From Escherichia virus TH43, in the sequence record MT446414.1: 64,000 bases of DNA; one strand, written 5' to 3'. Of this stretch, positions 12,595-58,806 are shown in pieces; position 1 is the stretch's first letter, and each line of letters opens with the position of its first letter. Made by a program: the position numbers and the translations under genes. The notes under the pieces were generated by a model. The model was given only the letters and a program-made list of their open reading frames with translations, ran no database searches and was not told the DNA's origin.

Positions 12595-12942
12595 ATGGAA
12601 AAGCTTCAAAACAATATCGGCTTCTTAGTCTTTACAGCCCTTGTATTCTTTGGTGGGATGAAGTTTGAGCAATATCGAAATGATAGTAACACTCTTGACC
12701 AAGAGAAGAAACAACAAGAGATTGAGATTGAGAGAGCTAAGGCTGCTGATGAAGTAGCTCAGAAAGTTCTTACCAGTATAACCAACTGGAAGAAGAACAC
12801 AGAAACTGTTTATAAAGAGATGCATTATGAGAAGACTAAGCCAGTTTTTTACAATGTGTGCGCTAGCGATGAGTATGTCAGCTTGTTCAACGAGCGACAA
12901 CAGCAGGCAGCTAATGCCCTTACCAACAAACCTAAAAGCTGA
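12595..12942 (+). CDS. i-spanin-like protein (N-terminal TM helix, periplasmic coiled coil)
   Basis: TM IGFLVFTALVFFGG then a charged coiled-coil region. Confidence 0.45.
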   Translation: MEKLQNNIGFLVFTALVFFGGMKFEQYRNDSNTLDQEKKQQEIEIERAKAADEVAQKVLTSITNWKKNTETVYKEMHYEKTKPVFYNVCASDEYVSLFNERQQQAANALTNKPKS

Positions 12943-13087
12943 GTGTGATGTTGATCTCCCTTTGCTTCAGAGTGCACAGGGAGTGGCATTTGCAACGACA
13001 TTAGAGTGGTATCAGGATAATTATACAACCTGTGCTGCTAATCATAATGGTTTACTGAAAGCTCTCAAGGAGAGAGGAATACAATGA
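12854..13087 (+). CDS. o-spanin-like secreted lipoprotein candidate
   Basis: signal peptide MCALAMSMSAC; Pro-rich with Cys residues; starts inside 12595..12942 in a different frame. Confidence 0.4.
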   Translation: MCALAMSMSACSTSDNSRQLMPLPTNLKAECDVDLPLLQSAQGVAFATTLEWYQDNYTTCAANHNGLLKALKERGIQ

Positions 13088-24924: not shown

Positions 24925-25719
24925 TTATTTAATAACACCAACACTTGCCAAACGTCTAAGAACGGCTTGTGTCTGTGGGCTGTATTGAGAACCTGCTTGA
25001 GTTGGTGCATGTGCTCTCTGAACTGTTTGAGACTTAGGAGCCTTTCCTGCTAACATCGCAGCAGCAGCTAGTGCAGCATTACCGAAGTTCTGTTGTGGTT
25101 TCTGATCTTCCCCAGCCTCTTCTGCATCGTCAGAATAGAACTCAGCAGGAGAACCTCCTAGAGCGCCTGTCTTAGCAGCAGCAATCTCAGCTTGAGTAGG
25201 AGCATTAGCAGCACCTTCTTTAGTAACCAACTCAGGAGAGAATTGGTTCACTGGCTGTGCTGATTGTAAAGCCCCAACAGGATTAGCCACCTGACCAGCA
25301 GCATCATTAGCTGTATAGAAAGGAAGGAAGTTCTTATTGTTCATAGAATCCAAGGCTTGAGGTGTAAACCCCTTCTTACCAGCGAACATTTGTTTTGCTC
25401 CACCAGTCCCTTCAGAGTATCCCACCATAGCTTTCTTCACATCACCATTAAAAGCTTTCAAATTATCACGAATATATCTAGCACCCATGTCAATGTTTTT
25501 GGCTGGGTCTAAACGATCTTCTAGTTTGTATCCATAGTCTTTAGCCAACCCTTTACTAATTTGCATTAAACCTACTGGCCCTGTACCTGATGCAACAGAA
25601 GGTCTACCACTAGACTCCCTCTGAATGACCGCATGGATAAGAGCAGCAGGAATGCCATACTTCTTAGAAGCTTGCTGGACCATAGGGTCAAGCTCGGACA
25701 CTCCCATGCGTATTGTCAT
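24925..25719 (-). CDS. lytic transglycosylase (SLT domain) virion protein
   Basis: SLT motif IQRESSGRP...GLMQIS...Y. Confidence 0.7.
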   Translation of the reverse strand: MTIRMGVSELDPMVQQASKKYGIPAALIHAVIQRESSGRPSVASGTGPVGLMQISKGLAKDYGYKLEDRLDPAKNIDMGARYIRDNLKAFNGDVKKAMVGYSEGTGGAKQMFAGKKGFTPQALDSMNNKNFLPFYTANDAAGQVANPVGALQSAQPVNQFSPELVTKEGAANAPTQAEIAAAKTGALGGSPAEFYSDDAEEAGEDQKPQQNFGNAALAAAAMLAGKAPKSQTVQRAHAPTQAGSQYSPQTQAVLRRLASVGVIK

Positions 25720-31655: not shown

Positions 31656-32147
31656 TTAGTATTTACCTGTGGTGTATAGGTCTGCTTCTGCAACCCTTCG
31701 GTTGTGAAGTCCCGGACTCTGTTGTTTTACACCTCTGACTGTTATTTTATCCCAACGGAGGAATTCAGAATAAACATCACCCTTCACATCTCCGTTAATA
31801 ACTTTCCTAAGTTTAGAAGTTGATAAAGCCCCACCACCAACGTTGAAATTGAAAGAGGTGAGAGCATCAAACTCGTGGGTTAACAAAGGAACCCTAATAT
31901 TTTTCTGAGTAGCACGAACAGAGTCTTGTGTGTCTCTATCTAGCAGAGCTAGACAATCCTCTATAGAATACGTTAATCCCTGTCTAACTGGATACCCATT
32001 CATATCGCGCGTAGCCCCAACACATATCGTCCAGATACCTGCGGAATCTCGGTAAGCACGAGTTCTCATACCTTCATGCTTCATGATGAATTCCATCCCT
32101 TCTGGGCTTAAGCTCAGTTGTATCGGTGGCAATGCGACATTATCCAT
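31656..32147 (-). CDS. lysozyme (GH24, T4/lambda-type endolysin)
   Basis: EGMRTRAYRDSAGIWTICVGAT catalytic region. Confidence 0.75.
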   Translation of the reverse strand: MDNVALPPIQLSLSPEGMEFIMKHEGMRTRAYRDSAGIWTICVGATRDMNGYPVRQGLTYSIEDCLALLDRDTQDSVRATQKNIRVPLLTHEFDALTSFNFNVGGGALSTSKLRKVINGDVKGDVYSEFLRWDKITVRGVKQQSPGLHNRRVAEADLYTTGKY

Positions 32148-32177: not shown

Positions 32178-32396
32178 TTACTGAAGCATATTTCTCAGAG
32201 CACTAGAATCAGAGTCCGGACAAATAACCACAAGATTATTTTGAATTGTACGCTGCTTACATAATGCACTCAATTTCTCAATTGGTGCAGGTTGTGTTAC
32301 CAGAGGATGCACTGCGTTAACAGGAACAGCCACTGACACAGCAAAACCGGTAGCAACACAAGCTAGCCCATAACTGATTTGTTTCATCATTTTCAT
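32178..32396 (-). CDS. small secreted protein (signal peptide)
   Basis: N-terminal signal-like MKMMKQISYGLACVATGFAVSVAVPVNA. Confidence 0.45.
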   Translation of the reverse strand: MKMMKQISYGLACVATGFAVSVAVPVNAVHPLVTQPAPIEKLSALCKQRTIQNNLVVICPDSDSSALRNMLQ

Positions 32397-51010: not shown

Positions 51011-51038
51011 TTGACACGTCGAATCGTTATGATAAGAT
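51011..51038 (+). promoter_or_regulatory. sigma70 promoter (TTGACA-16-TAAGAT)
   Basis: consensus -35; -10 TAAGAT. Confidence 0.55.
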
Positions 51039-51084
51039 GTGCACATGGTCAGCGATGACATAAAACATCCGGCACTAAGTGCCC

Positions 51085-51097
51085 CGCTCTTTAATAA
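51085..51097 (+). promoter_or_regulatory. boxA-like antitermination element (CGCTCTTTAATAA)
   Basis: preceded by hairpin GGCACTAAGTGCC; followed by TTTATC as in rrn leaders. Confidence 0.55.
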
Positions 51098-51172
51098 TTT
51101 ATCGTCTTGCCCTTTCGCAAAGATTCACGCGAGATAAGGGAAGAGAACAAAAAGAAGACGATAAAAAAAGAG

Positions 51173-51200
51173 TTGACAAGGTGAAACGTTCTGATAGAAT
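51173..51200 (+). promoter_or_regulatory. sigma70 promoter (TTGACA-16-TAGAAT) with A-rich UP-like element
   Basis: consensus -35, strong -10, A-tract upstream. Confidence 0.65.
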
Positions 51201-51223
51201 GTTCACTAAGCAGTAAGAAACAC

Positions 51224-51236
51224 CGCTCTTTAAAAA
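51224..51236 (+). promoter_or_regulatory. boxA-like antitermination element (CGCTCTTTAAAAA)
   Basis: ~25 nt downstream of promoter at 51173. Confidence 0.5.
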
Positions 51237-51340
51237 TATGAATCAGAAAGTTAAGCGCAACCGCTTACAATCTTGTTAATCCAATACGTGATTAACTGGT
51301 CATTCGAAAGAATAGACGAGAAAAAGATTTAAAAAAGTGG

Positions 51341-51369
51341 TTGACACGCTAAACAGGATGATTCATAAT
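51341..51369 (+). promoter_or_regulatory. sigma70 promoter (TTGACA-17-CATAAT) with A-rich UP-like element
   Basis: consensus -35, good -10, A-tract upstream. Confidence 0.65.
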
Positions 51370-53521: not shown

Positions 53522-53739
53522 TCTTAACTCAATCCCACCTTTGCCCTATCTGTAAGAAAGCGCGTGCTAATAACAACCATCGCAAGTGTAGTAGAATCTT
53601 ACAACGACGTCGTAATGATGCCGAGATGGATAAGCTGCACAAAAATCAGCATGAGCACGAAAGAAAACAAGCGGCGATTAGTGCATCTTCTGTAATGTAT
53701 CGTCGTGTAAGATCACTCCAATATAGGGAGGTTATTTAA
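53518..53739 (+). CDS. small basic protein with CxxC
   Basis: ORF track. Confidence 0.45.
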   Translation: MILTQSHLCPICKKARANNNHRKCSRILQRRRNDAEMDKLHKNQHEHERKQAAISASSVMYRRVRSLQYREVI

Positions 53740-54462: not shown

Positions 54463-54494
54463 GCCTCTTCTCTGTACCAGTAGTCAACTACTAT

Positions 54495-54547
54495 GACGCT
54501 CTTCTTGAGCGTCTTTGTGTCTGCCGCCTTTGTGCGGCTTTTTGCGT
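54495..54547 (+). terminator. two tandem rho-independent terminator hairpins
   Basis: GACGCTC...GAGCGTC then GCCGC...GCGGC, each followed by T-tract. Confidence 0.5.
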
Positions 54548-54703
54548 AGCTAGTGATGCCTAAAGGGAAAGCCCTTTGTGAATCATTGGCATGGTTCAAT
54601 CCCTATTGGATGGTCATTTGACCGGGCCTTTAACGAGGCCGCTTTTTTAAGAGTCTTTACGAGGATTCTTAAATGAGTGAGGTCATGTTCACTCTTTCAG
54701 GTC

Positions 54704-54730
54704 GCCCCGTCTTCGGATGGGGCTTTTTTA
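54704..54730 (+). terminator. rho-independent terminator
   Basis: GCCCCGTC-TTCG-GATGGGGC hairpin plus TTTTTT. Confidence 0.6.
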
Positions 54731-54781
54731 TGCCCGTAAAACAGGAGGTAGTAAGTTCTGATAACGACAGCCCAGCTACTT

Positions 54782-55168
54782 TTGACATTGACTATTTATT
54801 ATGAGGCAGGGAATCAGCCAACCGCTTGCAAAGCATTAGTAGCGGATACCGTAATAAACAGAATGTCACAACGAAAACTGACTGCCGAGCAGGTTATAAA
54901 CCAACGAAACCAGTTCGAGTGGATACCCGTCTTATTAAAGAAGGAGAAACCTTTCAAACGTTATGTAAAGCTAATTCGTGATGATAACCCTCTGACGAAG
55001 AAGTCAATCAGGGAGAGCGAGCAGCTTGCAAGACGTGCACTGAAGAAAAGTTATGTGCCTTTGTATAGCGGTACATACTTTCAGAGTAAGAGCGAAGGGG
55101 TGCCAAAGTGGTATACCAATCCAATGTATTGTGGTGATTTAGTGTTCAATAATAGTGCCCGTGACTGA
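54782..55168 (+). CDS. cell wall hydrolase SleB/CwlJ-like (Hydrolase_2-like) protein; start codon uncertain (no ATG)
   Basis: IYYEAGNQP...VADTVINRMSQRK...VINQRNQFEW resembles the SleB-type domain; AGGAGG at 54744. Confidence 0.45.
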   Translation: MTLTIYYEAGNQPTACKALVADTVINRMSQRKLTAEQVINQRNQFEWIPVLLKKEKPFKRYVKLIRDDNPLTKKSIRESEQLARRALKKSYVPLYSGTYFQSKSEGVPKWYTNPMYCGDLVFNNSARD

Positions 55169-55369: not shown

Positions 55370-55675
55370 ATGACTTTAGAGGTTTATAAGCTCCTTCTCG
55401 TACTCACTGTAACGATTTCTACTCTAGGATTTATTGCTTTAAGTAATAAGTCAGCAAGCTGGAAGCGTCGTTATGAGTTCCTTCTTAAGCAAGAGGAAGT
55501 CTTTAATGCTGATATTCGTTCCAAGTTGGTCAAGATGCAGGAGCAAATTGAAGCACGTAATGATCGTTTGGCTTCTTTGGGTTGGGAGATTAAGCGTATT
55601 CAAGATCTCAATAAGCAACTCACTGAAGAAATTAAACGCCAGAATGAGGAAACAGAGGATGCGCTCAAGGGTTAA
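55370..55675 (+). CDS. membrane-anchored coiled-coil protein
   Basis: N-terminal TM helix; coiled-coil C-terminus. Confidence 0.5.
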   Translation: MTLEVYKLLLVLTVTISTLGFIALSNKSASWKRRYEFLLKQEEVFNADIRSKLVKMQEQIEARNDRLASLGWEIKRIQDLNKQLTEEIKRQNEETEDALKG

Positions 55676-55835
55676 GTTCACCACTGGTCACACTGTTCGC
55701 CTTGTTGGCGGTACTCAAACAGGTGTTATTCGTCGGAGAACAACGATTGATGGTGTTCTCTGTTATCTTGTTCAGTGGAATGGTGAATCCTCTCCTTCCT
55801 TCGAACGTCGTACTGATTTGGTGTTAATCAAATGA
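55644..55835 (+). CDS. small basic beta-rich protein
   Basis: ORF track 55473..55835; internal ATG. Confidence 0.4.
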   Translation: MRKQRMRSRVKFTTGHTVRLVGGTQTGVIRRRTTIDGVLCYLVQWNGESSPSFERRTDLVLIK

Positions 55836-56062
55836 AAATTAATCTCCCATCTTTAGTTGTTACTAAAAAGCTCAGCGATCTACGTCCGGGTGATGTATTC
55901 CGTCTACCAACTAACTCTGAACACCTCTATCTAAAGACAGACACCTGCCTGAATGATATGCATCGTGTGGTTGGTCTTCGTCAGGGAACACTATTCCAGT
56001 TACAGGAACATCATGAAGTTATCCCTGTATTTGATGTTCAAGTGACTAATATTGGTGGTTAA
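55832..56062 (+). CDS. small protein, PGDxF paralog family
   Basis: LSDLRPGDVFRL motif. Confidence 0.5.
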   Translation: MKINLPSLVVTKKLSDLRPGDVFRLPTNSEHLYLKTDTCLNDMHRVVGLRQGTLFQLQEHHEVIPVFDVQVTNIGG

Positions 56063-56287
56063 ATGAAGATTGACATTGATAGTACGCCAGAGGTTGTAAC
56101 TCTCGGAGACCTAAATCCGGGTGAAGTCTTCCAGTTTAACTACAATGAAACTCAATACTACATGCGTACTGCGTGTTATGGTGAAAACAAAAGTTATTTT
56201 GTTAACCTTTATACAGGTAAGCGTGATTCTGAGTGTAAATCGACTGTAGTCAGACCTGTACCTAACGCACAACTAACCAACAAGTAA
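56063..56287 (+). CDS. small protein, PGDxF paralog family
   Basis: LGDLNPGEVFQF motif. Confidence 0.5.
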   Translation: MKIDIDSTPEVVTLGDLNPGEVFQFNYNETQYYMRTACYGENKSYFVNLYTGKRDSECKSTVVRPVPNAQLTNK

Positions 56288-57222: not shown

Positions 57223-57474
57223 GTGTTCAATCGTTTATTTGACCGTAAAGGTCGCACTGACATACTGATACCTTCTATCGGTGTGCCAGCTAAGTTCGGT
57301 GAGATACGTGCTGGTGACTTCTTCATGGAATCAGGTCGTCTTCATCTGAAGATCAACCTCGATCACGCTGTTGAAATCCTCAGTGATGATAAGCCAATCA
57401 TCGGCACTTCGGTGTACAGTGCAAACCATACTGTATTTGTTGTCAATGTTCAGATTGAGATTAAATCACCATGA
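57223..57474 (+). CDS. small protein, PGDxF paralog family (GTG start)
   Basis: FGEIRAGDFFM motif. Confidence 0.45.
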   Translation: MFNRLFDRKGRTDILIPSIGVPAKFGEIRAGDFFMESGRLHLKINLDHAVEILSDDKPIIGTSVYSANHTVFVVNVQIEIKSP

Positions 57475-57728
57475 AGACAAACTTCCGAGCAGCAGTTATT
57501 ACGAAAGTAATAGCAGTTGGCGATGTAATGATGCAGGTTCCTCTGAACACTCGTTACATTGCCATTGACCGAATGGGTTATGTGTGGGCTTGGAAGTGGA
57601 AGCCTACTTATAACGAACTGTTCGACGAATACCAGTGCGCTGGACCTTACATGCCAACCTTAATCGGTGTGTATGAAGATGGTCCTTGTCGTACTCCTCA
57701 GTTAATCGAACTACCGGCGTGTGCTTAA
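57471..57728 (+). CDS. hypothetical protein
   Basis: ORF track. Confidence 0.45.
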   Translation: MKTNFRAAVITKVIAVGDVMMQVPLNTRYIAIDRMGYVWAWKWKPTYNELFDEYQCAGPYMPTLIGVYEDGPCRTPQLIELPACA

Positions 57729-57729
57729 T

Positions 57730-57891
57730 ATGATTAAGTGGCTAAAGCGTGTCTTCCATTGTCATGATTGGAAGATTATTAACACCCGTCCTCTGGTCTA
57801 TACAGATTCAGATGGGAACAATGACAAGGGCACACGTTACGTTATTCAGTGTAAGGTGTGTGGTGATGTTAGTCATCGTGATGTAATCTAA
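57730..57891 (+). CDS. small zinc-ribbon protein, tandem paralog A (53 aa)
   Basis: manual translation MIKWLKRVFHCHDW...CKVCG. Confidence 0.4.
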   Translation: MIKWLKRVFHCHDWKIINTRPLVYTDSDGNNDKGTRYVIQCKVCGDVSHRDVI

Positions 57892-57900
57892 GGAATCATT

Positions 57901-58065
57901 ATGATTAAATGGTTCAAACGTCTATTTCATTTCCATGAGTGGGAAGATCTTTCTACTTATGAACTGACGATCACAAATAAACTTACTGACAGAGAGCGAC
58001 AAGGGTTGCGTATCTACTCTCGCTGTAAAGTGTGTGGTCTGCACAAGAAAACAGACCTGATTTAA
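57901..58065 (+). CDS. small zinc-ribbon protein, tandem paralog B (54 aa)
   Basis: manual translation MIKWFKRLFHFHEW...CKVCG. Confidence 0.4.
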   Translation: MIKWFKRLFHFHEWEDLSTYELTITNKLTDRERQGLRIYSRCKVCGLHKKTDLI

Positions 58066-58317: not shown

Positions 58318-58740
58318 TTGAAGATAGAGTTAGAATACCCCTTCGTTAATGACTGGCGATTGGGCTACTTAAGAACAAGCAGAGACGGTAGGAAGCGTGT
58401 TGATTTGTATAATACCGACACGGAGAGGACAACCATTTCTTACGCAAGATATTTAATGTCTTGTCACATAGGCAGGTACCTAACTGAAGACGAGGAGGTT
58501 GATCATATTGACAGAAATAAAACTAATGATGACATATCTAATCTTCAGATACTTTCCATAGAAAATCACAGAAAGAAGTCAACATTAGAAGCAACTACTG
58601 GAAGAACAATGATTTCAGTTGTTTGCTCTTATTGTGGAAGATCTTTTGAAAAAGAAAAGCGAAATGTTAAATATGCAAATTCTTTTTGTAACAGATCATG
58701 TGCAGGTAAGTATAACGGTTTCAAATCTATCGGGGCGTAG
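58318..58740 (+). CDS. HNH homing-endonuclease-like protein
   Basis: EEVDHIDRNKTNDDISNLQILSIENHRKK HNH motif. Confidence 0.55.
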   Translation: MKIELEYPFVNDWRLGYLRTSRDGRKRVDLYNTDTERTTISYARYLMSCHIGRYLTEDEEVDHIDRNKTNDDISNLQILSIENHRKKSTLEATTGRTMISVVCSYCGRSFEKEKRNVKYANSFCNRSCAGKYNGFKSIGA

Positions 58741-58806
58741 TCTAGTGGAACAGGCAGCGAGCTTCTAACTCGCCTTACGAGGGTTCGAATCCTTCCGTCC
58801 CGACCA
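58731..58806 (+). tRNA. tRNA-Arg (anticodon TCT)
   Basis: hand-folded 76 nt cloverleaf: 7 bp acceptor, D-loop with GG, anticodon loop CTTCTAA, T-loop TTCGAAT, encoded CCA. Confidence 0.8.

Follow-up and report, generated by a model that had tools for sequence, protein, structure and literature searches.

What is to be made of an open reading frame in a coliphage genome that looks like a SleB/CwlJ-type cell wall hydrolase gene, lies among early genes instead of lysis genes, and has no ATG with which to begin? The frame occurs in a 64,000-nt stretch of Escherichia virus TH43 DNA (MT446414.1), referred to here as the window, where it had been noticed from the letters of the sequence and described as open from position 54755 and devoid of an ATG start; our own examination agrees. 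We believe that the gene is functional, that it starts with CTG, and that it supplies, at a low level, a cytoplasmic lytic transglycosylase that acts as an accessory to the phage's principal lysis enzyme. We put the probability of this reading, taken whole, at roughly 0.6. The domain, the gene, and even the CTG-start coding sequence can already be found in public records, and so this is an annotation fix rather than a discovery. What we add is a case, made by comparison of relatives, for the start codon, together with a list of the three muralytic domains that the genome encodes.

The gene and its orthologues

The window is a phiEco32-like E. coli podophage of the Gordonclarkvirinae, with elongated heads of the C3 morphotype. 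In the 1-kb stretch around the hydrolase gene it is 95–98% identical to Bas88, TH34, TH42, ECBP2, EK010 and SU7—98% in the case of the E. coli podophages Bas88 and TH34—and 82% identical, over the same stretch, to kuraviruses such as Paul and phiEco32. It belongs to a Suseptimavirus-like subgroup, without the ATG that kuraviruses possess at codon 8 of the hydrolase gene. The gene is kept in all 98 close phage records in INPHARED (the sequence of the locus was read in 18 of the 98), and homologues occur in the Grimontviridae as well.

On the plus strand, tandem in-frame stop codons, TAG TAA (54749..54754), close the frame upstream; relatives vary here, with TAGCAA or TATCAA. The frame opens with GTT at 54755, continues with CTG at 54758 and ATA, and ends with TGA at 55166-55168. 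From the proposed CTG start the coding sequence (54758..55168) specifies 136 aa plus the stop, and the records of Bas88 and Bas89 annotate an identical 136-aa CDS. The protein comprises a single catalytic domain and nothing else. It is the orthologue of phiEco32 gp117, SU10 CDS116 and Paul gp123 (CPT_Paul_123), the proteins of PHROG 12974. These are 84–98% identical to it in aa sequence, occupy the same position in the early block, and are preceded by the same AGGAGG, 9 nt and CTG; there is no biological difference among them, and only the annotated start varies.

Vary it does. The orthologue has been deposited at six lengths: 101 aa (EP335), 102 aa (SU7), 110 aa (O18-011), 128 aa, 129 aa, and 136 aa (Bas88 and Bas89). 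The versions of 101–110 aa omit the catalytic Glu, and two of them, those of SU7 and EP335, use the ATG of Met36 as the start. For the 101-aa form of EP335, the BFVD model gives a poor superposition on that of the full protein (TM 0.27). The nature of the product has been recognized more consistently than its length: several GenBank records already carry the label ‘cell wall hydrolase’, the curators of Paul cite PF07486, and in UniProt the protein of SU10 is entered as ‘Cell wall hydrolase SleB domain-containing protein’.

A SleB/CwlJ-type catalytic domain

The original prediction saw in this frame a likeness to the spore-cortex-lytic hydrolase domain, and in this it was right: a profile search above the Pfam threshold, a match in fold to 4FET and 4F55, and the alignment of the catalytic residue all agree. 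The 137-residue translation of the frame matches Pfam PF07486 (Hydrolase_2) with a score of 31.6 bits, where the gathering score is 27 (E 2.6e-7; profile positions 2–85 of 100), 15 of 17 database homologues have precomputed matches to the same family, and the protein matches phrog_12974 at E 2.5e-84. A single-sequence search of PDB sequences returned no relevant match, and a search of NCBIfam gave sub-threshold noise only. A profile built from eleven homologues aligned to the SleB catalytic domain of 4F55 at E 0.065, a match that is weak in sequence yet in register: Glu16 is paired with the Glu of ‘VYGE’, Arg35 with the Arg of ‘NR’, and Phe53 with a Phe that the family conserves, and the C-terminal P/F/W/G/F residues likewise meet their SleB counterparts.

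Because the sequence profile found SleB at no better than E 0.065, it was comparison of folds that settled the matter. The AlphaFold2 model, built on 13 sequences, has a pLDDT of 91.2 and a pTM of 0.88, and its first helix (residues 4–17) bears Glu16. When this model was compared with the PDB by Foldseek, the top three matches were the SleB chains 4FET_A, 4FET_B and 4F55 (probability 1.00; TM 0.59–0.65), and beyond these chains the next match had E > 3. The viral models in BFVD that match it are phage ‘SleB’ proteins, among them the endolysin of Erwinia phage vB_EamM-Y2 (TM 0.80). In sequence, in fold and in catalytic residue, then, the protein is a member of Hydrolase_2. We predict that it is a lytic transglycosylase of the SleB/CwlJ type, with Glu16 (GAG, 54803..54805, plus strand) as the putative catalytic residue, on account of its alignment to the Glu of 4F55 and its invariance in all aligned homologues, down to 31% identity. 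The equivalent residue on the first helix of SleB we take to be Glu157 of the B. cereus enzyme, position 26 of chain 4F55_A.

With SleB and CwlJ of Bacillus the protein shares the fold of the catalytic domain, the Glu of helix 1, and the NR, QF and C-terminal aromatic motifs, at 17–18% identity to SleB (4F55, 4FET). Like CwlJ, it has neither an N-terminal peptidoglycan-binding domain nor a signal peptide. It differs from SleB by an insertion of ~35 residues (helices 65–94) between the QFxW motif and the C-terminal sheet, and its substrate is not the muramic-delta-lactam cortex, since E. coli has none. The glutamate is essential for catalysis in SleB (PMC12331253, PMC11148199), and a toxin with the SleB fold is lethal to E. 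coli when in the periplasm, provided that its Glu is intact (PMC11148199); the fold can therefore act on Gram-negative murein.

Choice of start codon

No in-frame ATG lies 5' of the domain; the first is that of Met36, at 54863, downstream of the catalytic Glu. Two candidate starts had been proposed, CTG at 54758 and TTG at 54782..54784, the latter giving a protein of 128 aa. Both exist, and the comparative evidence prefers the CTG over the TTG: translation probably begins at 54758. The CTG stands 8–9 nt behind a Shine-Dalgarno sequence, AGGAGGT (54743..54749, plus strand), that can be read directly from the DNA. The distance was first given as 8 nt from AGGAGG; it is 9 nt from that hexamer (54743-54748), and 8 nt when the motif is read as AGGAGGT. 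Such a motif is not diagnostic by itself, for of the 30 AGGAGG sites in the window, six precede a canonical start.

More telling is its conservation. The arrangement of AGGAGG or GGGGG, 9 nt, and CTG is present in 19 of the 19 E. coli-phage copies examined, which include those of the window, SU7, Bas88, ECBP2, Bas89, EP335, 4E8, KBNP1711, Paul, phiEco32, NJ01, XT18, O18-011, Bas91, EcoN5, Bas94 and two metagenomic contigs. These copies sit in three unrelated upstream contexts: behind a terminator in the window and Paul, behind a different sequence with an overlapping small ORF in phiEco32, and behind the stop codon of a 65-aa gene in EcoN5 and Bas94. In genomes of the phiEco32 and EcoN5/Bas94 types, homology to the window resumes at the Shine-Dalgarno sequence, or 5 nt before it. 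The Shine-Dalgarno sequence travels with the hydrolase gene, that is, from one upstream context to another.

More distant relatives begin at the same place. In six metagenomic homologues (47–70% identity, 133–136 aa)—P0010, P0011, P0012 and P0014, of 136 aa and 65–71% identity, together with P0015 and P0017—the N-terminal Met aligns exactly with the codon of CTG 54758. In the DNA of the metagenomic homologues, AGGAGG is followed after 4–7 nt by TTG (L094, L096, L102, L103) or by ATG (L098, L100). The Grimontviridae proteins 7-11 gp111, A24 gp025 and Privateer gp098 (141 and 140 aa) have their start, ATG or TTG, one codon before the equivalent of 54758. The near-cognate CUG thus lies at a functional distance from its Shine-Dalgarno sequence and occupies the position at which the six metagenomic homologues have TTG or ATG.

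Between the CTG and the TTG, the sites that vary among relatives are ACG/ACA, ACA/ACG and GCC/GCA, plus one change of Leu/Met. Compared with phiEco32, codons 2–8 have 3.5 synonymous changes in 5.8 sites and 1.5 non-synonymous changes in 15.2 sites, proportions that match the rest of the gene. This suggests that codons 2–8 evolve like coding sequence, although the substitutions are few and the comparison is statistically not strong. The two codons upstream of GTT, in contrast, vary freely among relatives, stops included. The stretch at 54749-54754 behaves like non-coding spacer, so that coding extends 5' no further than GTT-CTG-ATA.

The same enzyme might instead be started downstream, at TTG 54782 in the window and, in kuraviruses, at the ATG one codon earlier (129 aa), leaving AGGAGG-CTG as a relic. 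We regard this as unlikely, while taking it seriously. The 128- or 129-aa forms are those given in most public records, the kuraviruses have evolved an ATG at codon 8, and the BFVD model of the 129-aa SU10 protein resembles our 136-aa model (TM 0.90–0.95). TTG also initiates far more strongly than CTG: in E. coli reporters, GUG and UUG reach 10–100% of AUG, and CUG ~1–2% (0.02–3% across constructs) (bioRxiv 10.1101/063800). Neither the TTG nor the kuravirus ATG, however, has a Shine-Dalgarno sequence within 30 nt, and the Paul record, which gives ribosome-binding sites for neighbouring genes, lists none for its ATG-start 129-aa hydrolase CDS. A relic should decay, yet motif, spacing and CTG are kept in all 19 copies and across all three upstream contexts, and the changes in codons 2–8 are mostly synonymous. 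Two of the metagenomic homologues, L098 and L100, begin with ATG at the upstream position, and where the window has TTG 54782 they show either CTG or a codon that is no start at all; and residues 1–10 are modelled at pLDDT 94, with helix 1 beginning at residue 4.

Entry of ribosomes from a small upstream ORF (ATG 54673 or 54730, TGA 54802-54804), by translational coupling or frameshifting, we reject as not conserved, and we allow it only the slimmest of chances. The ORF does overlap the 5' end of the hydrolase gene, and in Bas88 a variant of it ends in CTGA, overlapping the CTG itself. But it crosses the terminator hairpin, loses ATG 54730 in Bas89, EP335 and 4E8, is shifted in frame by a 1-nt indel in Bas88 and ECBP2, and is missing from the phiEco32-type and EcoN5-type contexts, and changes silent in the hydrolase frame alter amino acids in its own. 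Nor is it plausible that the frame is a decaying remnant, deprived of its start codon and no longer translated. It is true that none of the canonical start codons stands at the right distance from a Shine-Dalgarno sequence, and that mass spectrometry of a crude SU10 phage preparation, in which 34 proteins were identified, did not show CDS116 (a single proteome, and weak evidence). Yet the whole-gene dN/dS is 0.05–0.17 (Nei-Gojobori, window versus 14 relatives) although synonymous divergence reaches 0.5–0.6 between genera, all 19 E. coli-phage copies retain the full 136-codon frame, and no variation is seen at the catalytic and structural residues. Given that dN/dS, the gene is not a pseudogene; selection disfavours the idea strongly, and we reject it as very improbable. 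A hairpin that would sequester the Shine-Dalgarno sequence (54744-54752 with 54775-54783 in the minimum-free-energy fold) was also considered and dropped: its z-score is -1.18, and the kuravirus change of CTT to ATG breaks the pairing.

The start position is homologous across these phages; the use of the CTG itself we infer. Initiation at 54758 would yield a protein beginning (M)ITTAQLLLTLTIYYEAGNQPTACK. In this lineage the start appears to have become weaker by steps, ATG giving way to TTG and TTG to CTG, at which it was then held. We stop at ‘probably’ for the CTG because the substitutions in codons 2–8 are few and because the SU10 orthologue escaped detection by proteomics. Standard gene callers cannot choose such a start; comparative evidence can, and the locus is a plain case, found in nature, of a near-cognate start that coliphages have conserved.

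Position in the early block

The gene was said to lie in the early region, outside the lysis and virion modules, and so it does: it belongs to an early block driven by sigma70-like promoters, and the other muralytic genes are found elsewhere. Three strong promoters of this kind (51011..51369, plus strand), with TTGACA -35 elements and 10–11 of 12 matches, head the early unit that contains the gene. They are situated at 51011, 51173 and 51341, within 360 nt, two have an extended TG, and together they match the triple early promoter of SU10, between CDS120 and CDS121, and that of phiEco32. The cluster falls in the early class that was established for phiEco32, according to a later summary (PMC8948821). 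Promoters of the gp36 type, served by the phage sigma factor (TAATGTATA), are absent from the plus strand within 1 kb of the hydrolase gene, save for a one-mismatch match at 53693, a frequency expected by chance.

Between the preceding gene, of 147 aa, and the hydrolase gene lies a spacer of 295 nt (54463-54757) in which no promoter fits. It contains four terminator-like hairpins, against 1.4 expected from shuffled sequences. A hairpin scan places three of them at 54495-54513, 54523-54538 and 54625-54640 (plus strand); the last (54704-54723, or 54704..54729 with its run of T6), which has a stem of 8 bp, 6 of them GC, ends with that run 13 nt before the Shine-Dalgarno sequence. The annotation of Paul marks a terminator at this position, and that of 7-11 marks one upstream of its homologue; the hairpin at 54704 is missing in the phiEco32-type and EcoN5-type contexts. 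An Rfam search of the spacer found no RNA family. A 57-aa ORF takes up part of the spacer in Paul, while phiEco32 and EcoN5 have other sequence in its place.

Lysis and muralytic genes elsewhere in the genome

What else does this phage have with which to attack the cell wall? Searches with Paul proteins (tblastn) locate, on the minus strand, a holin (32184-32396), an endolysin of the T4-lysozyme type (31659-32147; Pfam Phage_lysozyme, 108 bits), and an internal virion protein with an SLT lytic-transglycosylase domain (24934..25719; Pfam SLT, 84.8 bits), the SU10 homologue of which, gp20, has been found in virions by mass spectrometry. A search of the window for lysis genes locates the spanins (12604-13084, plus strand). 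The hydrolase is the third murein-cleaving domain of the genome, after the T4-type lysozyme and the SLT virion protein. It had been put forward as a second muralytic activity outside the lysis and virion modules, and an unexpected one. The extra domain, outside the modules, is there; ‘second’ undercounts it by one, and ‘unexpected’ is overstated, because the gene is present in all 98 records, has homologues in the Grimontviridae, and was already labelled ‘cell wall hydrolase’.

As a soluble single catalytic domain without a secretion signal, the protein has the makings of a holin-dependent endolysin. Endolysin genes of this kind accompany the holin and spanins or are expressed late, and around 54758, a position within the sigma70 early block, there is no late promoter of the gp36 type; for this reason we file the hydrolase as a possible accessory, and not as the endolysin of the phage. 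Its early-block position is not that of a virion-associated hydrolase, either, and its SU10 orthologue is missing from the 34-protein list, which is again weak evidence.

Location, expression and role

The N-terminus of the hydrolase has no signal peptide, SAR domain or lipobox, and the protein should therefore remain in the cytoplasm. The highest 19-residue Kyte-Doolittle mean is 0.81, far under the transmembrane range, and the uncharged stretch of 15 residues near the N-terminus, ITTAQLLLTLTIYY, is helix 1 of the catalytic domain (pLDDT ~94). A terminus so short, so weakly hydrophobic, and modelled within the fold is not that of a SAR endolysin.

Expression is probably low. The gene comes late in the early unit, behind the hairpins, and starts with CTG, so little protein should result from transcription and translation alike: initiation would proceed at the ~1–2% of AUG mentioned earlier, and the terminator-like hairpins upstream would add attenuation. 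To judge from the chemistry of this class of enzymes, a lytic transglycosylase in the cytoplasm would be without substrate until the membrane is breached. Permeabilization by the holin would give it access to the murein, where it would cut glycan strands beside the T4-type lysozyme. With no substrate to be had before that breach, an accessory muralytic enzyme released by the holin is the most economical reading. The accessory role is moderately likely; it is the weakest step in our account, and it leaves the early placement of the gene unexplained.

Might that placement be the better clue? The hydrolase could be made early for a task other than lysis—local murein remodelling or superinfection exclusion by way of some unconventional export, or a second, regulatory occupation in the manner of T7 gp3.5. 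The early, non-lysis placement is conserved in both the Gordonclarkvirinae and the Grimontviridae, phages that have other endolysins; expression appears deliberately attenuated, by the CTG start and the terminators upstream; and a membrane-anchored coiled-coil protein is encoded just downstream in the closer relatives. That the Grimontviridae keep the gene apart from their lysis genes, and have an endolysin of their own, hints at a dedicated further function. Against this, an export signal is missing, the invariance of the catalytic Glu and of the murein-binding motifs points to selection for catalysis and not for binding alone, and the membrane-protein gene is ~200 nt away, across a gap in which SU7 has an annotated promoter, and is not conserved in the Grimontviridae. 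All told, we find the proposal doubtful. The converse notion, that the hydrolase was the ancestral and sole endolysin of C3 podophages, is weakened by Proteus phage Privateer, which has a separate endopeptidase endolysin (PMC7881722).

There is a more speculative way to connect these features. Weakening of the start from ATG to TTG to CTG, its retention in three genera, and the hairpins could together be an evolved device that governs dosage or timing. A murein enzyme on an early mRNA might be held at ~1% translation, and rise as discrimination by IF3 collapses late in infection, or it might perform an early task at the wall for which a low dose suffices. Both the device and its workings are long shots; if true, they would represent a new regulatory logic for phage muralytic enzymes. 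Our preference remains for the functional gene with a CTG start whose product is an accessory released by the holin. For those who mine phages for lysins, the practical point is that phiEco32-like therapeutic phage candidates carry a third putative murein-cleaving enzyme, probably of low abundance.

Comparison with other phage enzymes

Hydrolase_2 endolysins and cell wall hydrolases occur in other phages of Gram-negative bacteria, for example the endolysin of vB_EamM-Y2 (phiEcoM-GJ1-type) and the ‘SleB’ proteins of Goslar, PhiW-14 and pf16. These have the same fold (TM up to 0.80) and, like the hydrolase, are soluble. The hydrolase is ~20% identical to them, and differs in being shorter, in consisting of the domain only, in its non-canonical start, and in lying neither beside a holin or spanin gene nor in a late operon. 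The lysozyme of T7, gp3.5, cleaves murein, has its gene apart from the late lysis genes, and is produced before the cell lyses; it also binds T7 RNA polymerase. The resemblance is one of analogy only, for gp3.5 has an unrelated Amidase_2 fold and different chemistry, and its regulatory function has no known counterpart here.

Closer in kind are the proteins of the Grimontviridae: gp111 of Salmonella phage 7-11 (‘endolysin’), gp025 of Cronobacter phage A24, and gp098 of Proteus phage Privateer (‘hydrolase’). They are 31–34% identical to the hydrolase over their full length, agree with it at the N-terminus to within one residue, and are likewise encoded among early or non-structural genes; they differ in having ATG or TTG starts with normal spacing, and other neighbours.

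Neighbouring genes

The gene that follows the hydrolase (55370-55675, plus strand) encodes a protein of 101 aa in which a transmembrane segment at the N-terminus (hydropathy 1.96) gives way to KRR and then a coiled coil. The same gene lies downstream of the hydrolase in Paul and in the metagenomic sequences L094, L096 and L098. PHROG 12154 and several GenBank records call its product ‘DNA helicase’, which looks like a mis-annotation. Beyond it come two small tandem paralogues (55832-56062 and 56063-56287, plus strand; 32% identity), with a weaker match at 57223-57474; members of this family (55832-56287 in the window) are also neighbours of the hydrolase gene in Paul (gp121) and perhaps in 7-11 (gp110, gp112). 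A tRNA gene (58731-58803, plus strand; Rfam RF00005, 52.9 bits) is also found inside the early block. At 57721-58065 (plus strand) there are two more adjacent paralogues, of 54–56 aa and 41% identity, each of which ends in CKVCG and has the look of a zinc ribbon.
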